Counted from the stretch's first letter, positions 32,562-37,300 are shown. The stretch: 64,000 nt of DNA from Alphaproteobacteria bacterium (GCA_965214705.1 CBDCCI010000002.1:640001-704000), one strand, 5' to 3'. Notes: a model not told the origin generated them from the letters alone. Translations and numbers: made by a program.

Positions 32562-32594
32562 GTTTTGTGCGCGATAGCTTTTGCTATCGCGCAC
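32562..32594 (+). repeat. lox-like site L
   Basis: gtttt-GTGCGCGATA-gcttttgc-TATCGCGCAC: perfect 10-bp arms around an asymmetric 8-bp spacer. Confidence 0.8.
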
Positions 32595-32905
32595 TATCTT
32601 GTCAATAGGAAGCTGCTCCACGCCGATTTCCCGCAGCAGCCACACGGCGCGAGATTCCGCTGCCGCCGGACATCAAGCCATTGCGTTGCATGGGTTTTCG
32701 GAGGATGGAACAAAGCCGTACGGACGGCGGAGCCAGGATTCAGGGTCCGCTGACCCCGTCCAACTTTACGCTCGATAGCATTTTCTGAACTTGCGCCCAA
32801 TCGGCGCTCGCGGCCCGCTCTCGACCGCCTTCTTGCAGTCGCGGACAACACTGACCGTCGCGCTATCATAGCTCGACGGCCGCCTCGGCACACCTCCGGC
32901 GCGGT

Positions 32906-33889
32906 TCAGGTCCGCCCCTGAATCTTCGCCAACTGCGCCGCGCCGCTGCGCCGCGCGAGCAGACGCTCGCCGTAGCGGCTGACCATCAGGGTGCACTTCC
33001 ACCGCCCGGCGTGGAGGATCGCCGGCAACTCGATGCCGGCGGCGACCATGTCCTGAGCCGCGCCCACCCGCGCGCTGTGCCCCGACAGGCCGTTCACCAC
33101 CGTTTCCGGCAGGCCGGCCTCGCGCGCCATCGCCTTGAAGATGCGCGCCACCTCGCAGGGATTCAGCCGCTCGCCGATCCGCCCAGCCTTGCCCACCGAG
33201 CGGAACAGCATTCCCTCCCCAATCCCGGCGCGGTCGAGCCAAACGCGCACCAGCTCGATGGTGTCCGGACCGACCCAGACGACCTCGCCCACACCCTCGC
33301 AATCGGTCTTGGACCGGCGCACCAGCAGGCTGCCGTCGCCCTGCAGTTCCTCCATCAGATCAGAGACTTGCAGGGACACCAGTTCCGACCGGCGGAGCAT
33401 CGCGTCGTAGGCCACGGCGAGCAGCGCGCGGTTGCGGTCATCGATCAATCGGTCGCCCGCGGCCTCCATCAGGCGCTGGTGCAGCGGCCATGTCAGTCCC
33501 GTCGCCTGGCCCTGGCGGCGTCCCTTGCGCCGGTACATCCGCTTGAGCGCGAGCCGCACGAGCGGGCTCTTCACCGTCTTCTCCAGACCCAGGGCCCGGT
33601 GGGCGATGCCGATGCTGGTGATATAGCGCCTCACCGAGGCCGGTGCCCGGACCTCGCCCATGGCATCGACGAAGGCCGCGACTGTCTCCGGCTCCGCCGG
33701 CAGCGCCCTTTCCCCCCGTTCGTCACACCACCGGGCATAGATGGCGAGATCGGACTTCAGGGCTCGCTCCGTGTGGCTGCTGAACGCGCCGCACGCCGCC
33801 CGCACGAAGTGCCCGAGCTCGTCCGCAAGCGCCTGTTCCCGGTCCGGTGCCGCCTCCTCCCAGGTGTTGAACGGGGATTCCAAAAACAT
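32906..33889 (-). CDS. Cre-like tyrosine recombinase
   Basis: N-terminal SAM-like domain; RNRALLAVAYDAMLRRSEL, RRSKTD, SGHSARVG, GRW, RY catalytic residues; GGAGG RBS before ATG 33889. Confidence 0.92.
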   Translation of the reverse strand: MFLESPFNTWEEAAPDREQALADELGHFVRAACGAFSSHTERALKSDLAIYARWCDERGERALPAEPETVAAFVDAMGEVRAPASVRRYITSIGIAHRALGLEKTVKSPLVRLALKRMYRRKGRRQGQATGLTWPLHQRLMEAAGDRLIDDRNRALLAVAYDAMLRRSELVSLQVSDLMEELQGDGSLLVRRSKTDCEGVGEVVWVGPDTIELVRVWLDRAGIGEGMLFRSVGKAGRIGERLNPCEVARIFKAMAREAGLPETVVNGLSGHSARVGAAQDMVAAGIELPAILHAGRWKCTLMVSRYGERLLARRSGAAQLAKIQGRT

Positions 33890-33930
33890 ACACGGGCCTC
33901 CAGACCATCCGCACACAAGGGCCCCGGATT

Positions 33931-33963
33931 ACGCGCGATATCAAAAGCTATCGCGCACAAAAC
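33931..33963 (-). repeat. lox-like site R (inverted relative to L)
   Basis: Reverse complement gtttt-GTGCGCGATA-gcttttga-TATCGCGCGT; 30/33 identical to site L. Confidence 0.8.
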
Positions 33964-34394
33964 CGAAGGCGGAGGCGTATGGATCCGGCCCTGCCGAGTG
34001 GATTGACAGTCGTCAGCCCTGCGTCAGCGGAGCGCGCCTGCGCGCGGACGCCGGTCGCGGGGCGGCCCTTCTCGGACCGGACGGCCCGTGCGGCGCGCGG
34101 TTGATGCCATTGGGGGGGGGGCGGACTTCGCCACATGCCGGGGAACGGTGCGCGGAAGCACGATTTCCGCCTTGCGCCGAATTCCGCCGCCCGCCGTCGG
34201 CCCGGGGTGGATGACGGTTCGTATCCCATCGTCGTCACCAACTCGAAGGGCGCCGTGGCGTCCCCGGACACGTTCGAGGTGACGACGGCGGGACGCGCGC
34301 GCCGGCGGCGAGACCGGCTCGGGATGAACGCGCTGCGCGGGGACGGAAACGCGTGCCGCGGCGGCCTGCGAACGACTAATCACGGTCATGGGGA

Positions 34395-37300
34395 GTGATG
34401 GCAATGCGAACGATTACAGCTGATCTGGGCGCGTTGCGCTCTCCCGCATTGCTCCGCGCCGCGTTCGCCGCCGCCGCGCTCGTCCTCCTTGCGCTCGGCG
34501 CCGGGGCGGCGCAGGCGCAGAGCCCGGTCAAGCTGGTCGGCAATACCGGGCAGACGGTGTCCGGCGACCACACCGTCGGCAAGCCTTCCGGCCTCCACGA
34601 GATCTGGGCGCTGGCACAAGTCTTCACGACCGGCCCCAACGCCGGGGGCTACACGCTCTCTTCGGTCGATGTGCGGCTGGGGTCGGTGCCCGCGGGCGTC
34701 AGCCCGCGGGTGAGCATCCACAGCGCGCCCTTCGGCGGTGGGGGCGTCCGCCTTCATGAGCTGACCAACCCGGCCTCAATCAGGGCGAACGCGGTCAACA
34801 CGTTCACCGCGGCCTCGGGCGCGACGCTCGACGCCAATACGACCTACGCGGTGGTGCTGGAGACACGCCGCGCCGGCGCTCGCTATACGGTCAAGGGAAC
34901 CGCCAGCAGCGCTCAGGACTCGGGCGCGGCGGGTGGATGGAGCATCGCCGACACGCACCGCCAAAACGACAGGCTGTCGTACACCGTCGGATGGGCCCCG
35001 GCCGACCAGGCCCTGATGATCGCGATCAACGGCAGCCCGGGGACGCGCCCCCCGACGCCCCCGCCTCCCCCGCCCGTTTCCTCGGCCGTCACGGTGAGCA
35101 ACCTCGGGCAGACGACCGGAAGCACGTTCTCTTTCAGTTTCGACCTTGCCTCGTCGTTCACCACGGGCAGCGAGAGCTCGGGCTACCTGCTGACCCGCCT
35201 CGACATCCACATGAACAACGTGACGGGGACGCCGGGCTACAGCGTGAGCATCTGGTCGGACTCGTCCGACTTCCCGGGCAGCAGCGTGGGCACGCTGACC
35301 AAACCGGCCTCCCTGAGCGCCGGGCTCAACTCCTTCACGGCTTCGGGCAACGGCATCAAGCTGAACCCCGGGACGAAGTACTGGGTGGTGTTCGACGCCC
35401 AGACCGCGGGCATTACCTCCCGCTCGCTAACGAGTTCGAACGGAGAGGACAGCGGCGCCGCGGCGGGCTGGAGCATCGGGGACAGCTCCCGGGGCCGGAG
35501 TACCGCCCAAAGCACCTGGGGCGCCACTCCTTCCACCCAGCATTTGAGGTTCGCCGTCCACGCCAAGGTGGCGCCCCTCGTGGTGTCGAATGCTCCCTTT
35601 ACCGTCACGGCGGGTCCGCAGGACGTCTACATTCACCTCACCAAGGACATCAGCACCGGTTCCACAGGCAGCCACCCGATGTCGGGCAACCGCTGCCCGG
35701 CGAGCCAGGCCTTCACCCTCAAGGTGAACGGCGTCGCGTCCGGGTCGTGGGCCACCAGGGGTGTCACGGGAGGTCCTACAGGCGGCAACGGCCTGGACGG
35801 CTGGCGGGCCAAGTGCACCGCCCGGCAGATTCACCTGGAGCTGTGGAACGGCCCCGGCTACTACGAGATTCCCGCGGGGAGCACGGTCACCCTGAGCTAC
35901 GACCCGAACCTGGTCTGGACGGGGCCGGAGCGCGGGCGGATCTTCTACACCGACGGCACCGTGATGCCCGCCTTCACCGACAAGGCGGTGCAGAACAACA
36001 CGCCGCATCTGAAGTGGGCGTCGGTGAACGGGACGGACCTGCTCGCGTATTTCGGGTACAGCCTGGCCACGTGGTCGGTGCCGGCGCCCTCGGCGTTCAC
36101 CGTGACGGTGAACGGCACCCGGCGCAACGTCGTCGCGGGCGGCATCAGCTTCTTCGGCAACCACAACGGGGGGGTGAAGCTCGTCCTGGAGTCGGCGGTG
36201 GAGTACGGCGACACGGTCACGTTCGCCTATGACGCGCCGTCGGCCAATCCGCTGCGGGGCACCCGGGGCAACCCGGTCGTGCCGGACCTCACCGTCAGGA
36301 ACGTGAGGAACGACACGCCGGCGCCGGTGGCGCCGCCGCCGCCGACCACCACCGGCTTGGTGAGCAATACCGGGCAGGCGGATGGCGGGGGAACAGGGTT
36401 GTCGCTAATCTGGAATTATTCGCAGGGGTTCACCACGGGCAGCAATGCCGCAGGGTACAAGCTGACCCAGGTGCGCACGGCACTTGATAACACGACCAAC
36501 GGCCAGTCGTCAGCGGCCGTGAGTGTGAGCATCCGGTCGGACTCATCTGGCTCGCCCGGCAGCAGCCTGGGGGCGTTGACCAAACCGGCCAATTTGAGTG
36601 GGCGAGGGACGTACGACACATACACCGCAACTGGCGATGGCATCGACCTAGCGGCCAACACGAAGTACTACGTGCAGGTGGAGAGTCAGAGCGGCGCTCT
36701 CATTGGTAGATGGCGCCAAACTCAATCGACCGACGAGGATTCAGGTGCGGCCGCGGGCTGGTCCATTGCCGACCAACTGCACTTTCGAGTATCAAGCGCT
36801 AACCAGTGGTCACCTATCAGCGTTTTGTTGAAGCTCGCCATCCAGGGCTACGCCAAGTCGGGCGGCGCGGGCGGCGCCTCCGGCAACTCCGGCCCCTCGC
36901 CCACGAGCTCGCAGGTGTCCGGCACCCAGCTCAAGATGACCTTCGACGCGACGCTCTCCCAGGGCTTGGCGCCGCCGGGGGGCAGCTTCAAGGTGACGGT
37001 GGGACCGGGGCCGCAGGGCGGCGCGCGCGGCATCGGCGGCGCGGGCGCGAACGGCGGCGGGTTCGGCGGCGGATTCGGGACCGGCGCGCAGGCGACCTCC
37101 GGCGGCCGCACGACCGACATCCCGGGCACGGGCACGGTGACCGTCGACGGCGCGGACGTGACGGTGACGCTCGCCCGGGCGGTGCCGCCCGGCTCCACGG
37201 TGACGGTGGCCTACACCCCGCCCGACGAGGACGAGAATGCGCTGCGCGACCTCGAGGGCGCGAAGGTGGAGGAGTTCTCAGGGGCGCCGGTGGCGCACGG

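Follow-up and report, generated by a model that had tools for sequence, protein, structure and literature searches.

A candidate self-contained promoter-inversion switch with a Cre-type recombinase and lox-like sites beside a giant repeat-protein gene in an alphaproteobacterial genome

Results

The window analysed here is a stretch of 64,000 nucleotides from the genome of an Alphaproteobacteria bacterium (GCA_965214705.1, CBDCCI010000002.1:640001-704000), with positions counted from its first letter. It contains a 1.4-kb segment (32562-33963) in which the gene for a Cre-type tyrosine recombinase is enclosed by two inverted lox-like sites, L and R, with a TTGACA hexamer just inside L; a truncated gene lies beyond L and an open reading frame (ORF) for a 2011-aa secreted repeat protein lies beyond R (Table 1). 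A first-pass annotation of the sequence had proposed that the arrangement is a Hin-style promoter-inversion switch run by a Cre-like enzyme. Comparison with related loci supports that reading at the level of the family, and we put at roughly 0.7 the probability that the segment is a self-contained invertible promoter element controlling the giant gene.

Table 1. Features of the recombinase locus and its flanks, in window coordinates
Feature	Position	Strand	Remarks
Site L (D site, recombinase stop-codon side)	32562-32594		lox-like, central 6 bp CTTTTG
-10 position	32576-32582	minus	crossover spacer and first outer-arm bases
-35 hexamer TTGACA	32605-32600	minus	just inside L, pointing left across the site
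Lone half-site M (ACGCTCGATAGC)	32768-32779		190 nt inside L, same sense as L outer arm
Cre-type tyrosine recombinase gene	32906-33889	minus	327 aa, intact; ATG at 33889 (likely start) after GGAGG
Site R (U site)	33931-33963		41 nt upstream of recombinase ATG; inverted partner of L
Secreted repeat protein ORF, putative switch target	34395-40430	plus	2011 aa, 431 nt beyond R
41-codon ORF	33979-34104	plus	GGAGG in front, start 16 nt beyond R
Truncated barrel-protein gene	31210-31710	minus	N-terminal ~145 residues of a 285-310-aa protein
Hybrid sensor kinase-response regulator remnant	30795-31291	minus	frameshifted, internally deleted

The sole Pfam family found in the recombinase is PF00589 (E 8.1e-15; 55.4 bits against a cut-off of 27.1); a Pfam search found no serine recombinase (resolvase) domain in it, and it is not a member of the Hin/Gin/Cin group. 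When the protein was compared with all solved structures, the best matches were to Tre and Cre (E 6e-26 to 1.4e-25, over residues 32-312 of 327), with XerD at E 3e-4, and a profile of eight family members separated Cre/Tre (~2e-34) from XerD (4.9e-7) more widely still. In the NCBIfam models, the protein falls outside XerC (39.5 bits against 335), XerD (35.5 against 330) and the FimB/FimE type, and the model for a 'tyrosine-type DNA invertase' gave 15.9 bits against a cut-off of 222. Residues R166, E169, K194, H271, R274, W297 and Y306 align with R173, E176, K201, H289, R292, W315 and Y324 of Cre. E176 belongs to the catalytic set of Cre together with the other six. Those six, R173, K201, H289, R292, W315 and Y324, are listed as the Cre catalytic residues in PMC10250229, and their counterparts R166, K194, H271, R274, W297 and Y306 are invariant across an eight-sequence family alignment. 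On this sequence evidence the protein is a member of the tyrosine recombinase (phage integrase) superfamily, of the Cre type; the initial description of a Cre-like recombinase holds, with Cre and Tre its nearest solved relatives and all seven catalytic residues aligned.

The two sites lie where the first-pass annotation had placed them, and a direct reading of the 33-nt copies reproduced both their coordinates and their identity at 30/33 positions; a repeat finder independently returned inverted arms of 31 nt (32562-32592 and 33933-33963), separated by 1340 nt and 97% complementary. In site L, 12-nt arms (32567-32578 and 32583-32594) form a perfect palindrome around TTTT, with GTTTT added on the outer side of the site. 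The plus strand carries AAAA in R and TTTT in L, so the two sites are directional and point in opposite directions; the central CTTTTG is common to both. Relative to L, three positions are changed in the inner arm of R, the central 6 bp are unchanged and three of the four half-sites are identical. The pattern GCGCGATAGCNNNNGCTATCGCGC, allowing up to 3 mismatches, matched twice in the window against an expectation of 0.02, and two matches were obtained in none of 100 shuffles. The window site is compatible with a 13-8-13 layout centred on CTTTTG, a core that is unique among the family sites compared. The loxP geometry originally proposed, with palindromic arms and a shared CTTTTG core, is thus upheld by direct reading and also by the family profile of partner sites described below.

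Reading outward from the minus-strand TTGACA, a spacing of 17 nt leads to AAAAGC (32582-32577) and one of 18 nt to AAAGCT. The original proposal of an outward TTGACA with a weak AAAGCT 18 bp on stands as regards sequence, position and the weakness of the -10, with AAAAGC at 17 nt as an alternative to the hexamer named. The one candidate listed by a strict sigma-70 promoter scan, at 32842-32869 on the plus strand, is unrelated to the outward promoter and was set aside, and Rfam gave no matches in 30500-34600 at E <=1.

A scan of genome contigs, one genome per species, returned 326 relatives of the recombinase, with 54-83% protein identity to it; 79 loci were fetched and, with 7 of the genus, 86 were examined. 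By their record titles, the fetched loci come from metagenome-assembled genomes (MAGs) labelled Alpha- and Gammaproteobacteria, Chloroflexi, Vicinamibacterales and Longimicrobiales, several of them named for sponges. Both sites are present in 71/86 loci, one (U) ~38 nt upstream of the ATG and its inverted partner (D) downstream of the stop codon; by the pattern used, the other 15 lack one or both. D lies ~300 nt past the stop in most loci and ~50-70 nt past it in a short form found mainly in Longimicrobiales. Same-genus genomes hold 11 copies of the gene, seven with inverted repeats of 32-44 nt placed 1265-1340 nt apart and four without repeats, three of which are truncated or interrupted.

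U was compared position by position with the reverse complement of D in 70 distinct pairs. The six central positions are identical in 99-100% of pairs. At positions -4, +4 and +5 the figure is only 69-84%, at -5 to -9 and +6 to +9 it is 90-100%, and beyond ~+/-16 the agreement is gradually lost. Partner central 6-mers are identical in 68/71 loci, yet 21 different 6-mers, none of them palindromic, occur across the loci, and there are 13 different arm 9-mers among the 71. This profile matches the prediction of a 6-bp strand exchange within an 8-bp spacer, the loxP plan. Arms conserved to ~+/-13-16 with +/-4 free to differ are what a lox-type target should have, the cleavage positions being predicted only. 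The comparison supports the view that the sites behave as recombination partners rather than as operators.

The -35 hexamer is likewise a family feature. Exactly 17 nt inside the D spacer, TTGACA is present in 27/72 loci and a hexamer with at most one mismatch in 44/72, compared with 1/72 in the outer flank of D, which served as a control; allowing 16-18 nt raises these figures to 31/72 and 50/72. Read outward across U, a TTGACA-like hexamer occurs at the same 16-18-nt position in 0/65 loci. The hexamer at the -10 position consists of the 4-nt spacer plus two arm bases, and its commonest forms in the family are TACAGT (17), GACAGC (10), AACAGT (7) and TACAAT (6), with GACAGT also occurring. 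Because the sites are inverted copies that give the same outward spacer reading at both ends, inversion would restore the promoter. The conserved TTGACA is likely part of a working outward promoter, although this assignment is putative.

Giant ORFs were counted when coding-like, at least 1000 aa long (or at least 500 aa if open-ended) and starting within 900 nt outside a site. By this measure, a giant ORF lies outside U in 36 loci, outside D in two (L067 and L073), outside both in none and outside neither in 33; within the genus, five of the seven repeat-bearing modules face one. The first 350 residues of the window's large protein have relatives in 22 of the 79 fetched loci, 20 of them on the U side and divergent from the recombinase, the two on the D side being in L046 and in L054, where the U side is cut by the contig end. 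The expectation that homologous recombinases would be flanked by the same inverted sites and stand beside surface-protein genes, in either orientation, is borne out. In many loci the first start codon of the giant ORF, with a ribosome-binding site, is 32-63 nt from the site centre (15-46 nt beyond the site edge), which leaves no room for a separate promoter, such that transcription must cross the site. We read the prevailing orientation as OFF, since nothing promoter-like points toward the giant gene there. Flanks were compared through their ORFs and by blastn, since high-G+C noise obscured a comparison by tblastx.

The first-pass annotation had made its proposal depend in part on inverted reads or homologous loci in the opposite orientation, and such loci were found. 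One Rhodobacterales MAG has two contigs, L044 and L046, that differ by an inversion exactly at the sites: the segment of 1941 nt that the sites enclose aligns in the same sense (96.7%), whereas the flanks align in the opposite sense, at 80.9% for the flank with the large-gene homologue and at 94.6% for the other. The alignments meet and overlap within 19-nt site cores, the inner arms going with the segment and the outer arms remaining with the flanks. In L046, the promoter end abuts the large-gene homologue, with a GTG 20 nt past the site. L066 shows swapped flanks relative to L073 and L069, and in L073 the giant gene is at D and a flank homologous to the LuxR/MalT-like side of L066 is at U. 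Comparison of the loci gave 300 matches between flanks, of which 282 run in the same sense, 17 are inverted and one is odd; 11 of the 17 are accounted for by L048, which was considered as a flipped copy and rejected, having a U site only and a rearranged downstream part. On these alignments, both orientations occur in nature within the family, with breakpoints at the sites.

Four of the loci just mentioned have further peculiarities. L044 and L046 carry two tandem U-type sites 47 nt apart upstream of the recombinase, and a longer stretch than usual, 833 nt, separates their stop codon from D. L073 (4738-5628) and L069 (4745-5586) each have, ~3.4 kb upstream and on the other strand, a further recombinase gene from this family, such that two modules flank one regulator-like gene.

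A lone copy of the site arm is found inside D in 45/57 long-form loci. Its distance to D is mostly 183-192 nt (189 being commonest) and 142-211 nt in all but one locus, L044, where it is 721 nt. The window copy, M, differs from the window's own arm at 3/12 positions and has the same sequence as M in L029 and L030. It is a probable, if putative, accessory binding site.

The genome has a second copy of the module (G000:C1:2079007-2082472; L007 7008-10473), on the largest of the assembly's three contigs, which has decayed. L is kept with one mismatch, the 5' end of the recombinase gene and R are lost, and the gene is split by a 2.15-kb insertion sequence encoding a 618-aa DDE transposase. Homology between the window copy and this second copy extends 60-110 nt beyond L, which argues against a transposon bounded by the repeats.

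On the right side of the segment, the 2011-aa protein has a signal-like segment at its N-terminus and contains three choice-of-anchor R stretches, SWM repeats and a Calx-beta domain; the initial report of a 2011-aa adhesin about 430 bp beyond R agrees with the ORF and distance measured here. Between R and the large ORF, the 41-codon ORF is conserved over its first ~95 nt in the loci nearest to this one, and its start corresponds in L028 and L033 to that of the giant ORF. It could serve as a leader ORF or be what is left of a former start of the large gene. Directly after its stop codon, the leader of the large ORF contains a run of 10 G (34112-34121), which is one G shorter in contigs of the public runs X4 and X5 and the same as the window in X1 and X2. 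This length-variable run could be a second, slippage-type layer of variation, or assembly noise. L033 has a long run of the 4-nt unit CCTG/GCCT ~110-200 nt outside U, before its giant ORF, possibly another slippage tract in the same kind of leader.

On the left side, the putative promoter faces a gene that is dead in this genome. The truncated ORF is 72-73% identical to full-length proteins of L031 and L028, which match PF13505 (outer-membrane barrel) below the cut-off; the earlier identification of the left neighbour as a truncated outer-membrane protein gene is sustained to that extent, its full-length relatives being barrel-like. It runs into the remnant (31291-30795) of a GAF-PAS-kinase-receiver-OmpR hybrid, an intact form of which follows D in 10 fetched loci (nine of Longimicrobiales and L106 of Vicinamibacterales), with partial matches in three more. 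The 1.29 kb to the left of L is alignable with the closest loci at 76-86% (1290 nt of D flank) and shows no three-base periodicity apart from a weak signal over the final ~200 nt, the place of the truncated barrel ORF; we read the remainder as a probable non-coding leader. ORFs at 32594-32893 (minus), 32180-32608 (plus) and 31223-32542 (minus) matched no Pfam family, and none is coding-like by a third-position G+C screen. A terminator-like hairpin lies at 32362-32393 in the conserved non-coding stretch: perfectly matched 13-nt inverted arms enclose a 6-nt loop, and CTGCTTT comes next on the plus strand.

The D-side gene differs between clades. In the short-form loci L089-L106, mainly Longimicrobiales, a 777-aa single-polypeptide GAF-PAS-HisKA-HATPase-receiver-OmpR protein is encoded ~180 nt from D in the direction of the promoter, and a switch alternating between regulator and adhesin is conceivable there. 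L066 has a 924-aa LuxR/MalT-like gene on the D side and its giant gene at U. Most genomes of the genus contain many copies, at 70-80% identity, of a 266-nt part of the window remnant (31017-31283) that corresponds to residues 204-295 of the hybrid kinase-regulator; a family of such hybrid genes seems to be common in the genus.

Discussion

The 1.4-kb segment would have three working parts: a Cre-type recombinase gene, a pair of inverted lox-like sites of the 34-bp class, and an outward promoter at the stop-codon end of the gene. The sites are taken to consist of arms of ~13-16 bp around an 8-bp spacer, the central 6 bp of which would be the crossover. The TTGACA would travel with the segment while the -10 position is supplied by the crossover spacer itself; with sites that are inverted copies, the promoter would be rebuilt at whichever end it lands. 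In the assembled orientation, the promoter would point leftward into a dead gene, with the adhesin OFF; after inversion between L and R, it would point rightward across R into the leader of the 2011-aa protein, with the adhesin ON. A recombinase bound at the site would cover the -10, and the half-site, which lies 190 nt in from the promoter end, probably serves as an accessory site. We infer that the giant gene depends on the TTGACA promoter and that the window copy still flips. In this genome, the 2011-aa protein is probably silent in most cells.

Several observations weigh against this interpretation. The -10 of the window, be it AAAAGC or AAAGCT, matches TATAAT at 2/6 positions, the TTGACA promoter was not listed by the strict sigma-70 scan, and the large ORF, 431 nt beyond R, could have a promoter of its own. 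For the recombinase gene, no promoter was found or could be proposed, with only ~38-41 nt between U and its ATG. By the criterion used, 33/71 loci are without a giant ORF, some of these being short contigs and some apparently decayed. The loci are related to one another, such that the counts are not of independent events; the 36:2 bias in orientation could also reflect a mostly fixed arrangement, and the D-side cases L067 and L073 have diverged sites. L044 and L046 are possibly paralogues or strain variants, and show a past inversion, not a rate. In this organism no inverted orientation was seen: Logan contigs of 4/4 public runs show only that of the reference, with a contig bridging R in X1, X2 and X4 and contigs bridging both sites in X5, and no strand-changing joint is among those listed for the four runs. 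Assembled contigs drop rare variants and may hide a minority orientation, and we take this as a null result rather than as a refutation.

These last data bear on the idea that the window holds a fossil or locked switch, i.e. a module of the invertible type that no longer flips or regulates, with the adhesin read from another promoter or silent. The uniform orientation in the public runs and the poor -10 fit that idea, as do the truncation of the left gene ahead of a scrambled kinase-regulator remnant, the destruction of the genome's second copy by an insertion sequence and the three changes in the inner arm of R. Nevertheless, we consider it unlikely, because the recombinase ORF is intact with every catalytic residue kept, the central 6 bp of L and R and three of four half-sites are identical, changes in distal arms and at +/-4 are common in the family, and contigs can miss a minority orientation. 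A related proposal is that the segment does invert, but that TTGACA drives the D-side gene, be it an outer-membrane protein or a large regulator, or that inversion controls expression of the recombinase, the giant gene having its own promoter. In the prevailing orientation the promoter indeed faces the 777-aa hybrid in Longimicrobiales, the 924-aa LuxR/MalT-like protein in L066 and a barrel-like protein in the alphaproteobacterial group, and the 431 nt beyond R in the window is consistent with a separate promoter. However, the D gene varies by clade whereas the partner that stays constant is the giant gene at U (36 loci against two at D), D genes start 180 to ~850 nt from the site with room for promoters of their own, and giant ORFs that begin 15-46 nt beyond the site edge are too close for one; this proposal is therefore improbable, more so than a locked switch.

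Two further explanations were weighed. The sites might be the terminal repeats of a small mobile element, a tyrosine-recombinase transposon or integrative cassette with a preference for inserting near adhesin genes, as terminal inverted repeats around a single recombinase gene, several copies per genome and a spread across phyla at 54-83% protein identity would suggest. Homology ending at the repeats, in unrelated contexts, is what a transposable element should show and was not found: homology between the genome's two copies continues past L, and both flanks are conserved between loci, as seen in the 282 same-sense pairs and the 1290 nt of alignable D flank. Moreover, copies within a genome have diverged to 60-75% identity rather than being near-identical, the asymmetric and always inverted spacers imply inversion rather than excision, and L044 and L046 differ by inversion in place; we regard a mobile element as very unlikely. 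Hardly any weight attaches to the suggestion that the palindromes are operators only, for autoregulation of the recombinase or for another regulator, with no recombination between them. R lies directly upstream of the recombinase start, and palindromes are typical of operators, but an operator role does not predict a second inverted copy 1.3 kb off, beyond the stop codon, in 71/86 loci, a partner identity confined to the asymmetric central 6 bp (68/71 loci, with 21 6-mers), or the L044/L046 inversion.

Returning to the promoter-inversion switch, a more far-reaching and decidedly tentative extension, which we consider possible but doubtful, is that every giant adhesin gene is served by a separate Cre/lox pair, distinct in arm and spacer sequence, forming a horizontally shared plug-in cassette for phase variation. 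The recombinase would repress via the -10 in the crossover, and the half-site, ~18 helical turns inside the promoter end, would bias the switch toward OFF; such a bias would explain the 36:2 ratio of orientations. If this were so, several adhesins in one symbiont genome would switch independently, and there would be dozens of potentially orthogonal natural Cre/lox pairs with native sites. The 21 crossover 6-mers and 13 arm 9-mers among 71 loci may be useful as a catalogue of candidate orthogonal recombinase tools, and surface variation of uncultured animal symbionts would become directly testable.

The closest parallel in overall design is with the flagellar Hin/hix switch of Salmonella, in which a serine invertase acts at 26-bp hix sites with a Fis-bound enhancer. 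The segment described here shares with that system the inverted sites, the recombinase gene inside and, putatively, an outward promoter beyond the 3' end of the gene that would read across one site toward one or more surface-protein genes; it differs in its Cre-type tyrosine recombinase, its lox-like sites and the location of the -10 position in the crossover itself. With Cre/loxP of phage P1, and with Tre, Vika and Dre, the likeness extends to the seven catalytic residues, a palindrome with an asymmetric spacer beside the gene and, as the partner-site profile suggests, a 6-bp overlap within an 8-bp spacer. Phage P1 has one loxP, which serves in circularisation and dimer resolution. In the present family, by contrast, the gene stands between two inverted sites, which carry a putative promoter and adjoin giant surface-protein genes on bacterial chromosomes or replicons. 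Target sites near Cre-type genes are treated in PMC10250229 as engineering parts, and 'invertible' and 'phase' occur 0 times in its main text. Our full-text literature searches returned no description of a natural ON/OFF switch of the self-contained Cre/lox type, although the ~500 predicted pairs in Table S2 of PMC10250229 may include members of this family.

As with FimB/FimE-fimS and the invertons of Bacteroides, a tyrosine recombinase would invert a short promoter segment so as to turn a surface structure ON or OFF. The recombinase genes of those systems are not part of the element, the repeats are ~9-30 bp and host factors are needed; here, the recombinase gene is inside the invertible element. 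At the pneumococcal ivr/PsrA loci, the recombinase gene is also inside the inverting locus. Those shufflons, of type I restriction-modification systems, rearrange hsdS coding segments, whereas in the present case a promoter would be moved and no coding sequence recombined. The association of a tyrosine recombinase with the inverting pneumococcal locus is described in PMC7096588 and PMC7672463. FLP/FRT of the yeast 2-micron plasmid is likewise a system in which the tyrosine recombinase gene lies on a segment with inverted copies of the enzyme's target at either end. That system is eukaryotic, works in copy-number amplification through 599-bp repeats and switches no promoter. Promoter inversion is a classic mechanism; against this background it is the self-contained version of the Cre/lox type, apparently present in several phyla, that stands out.

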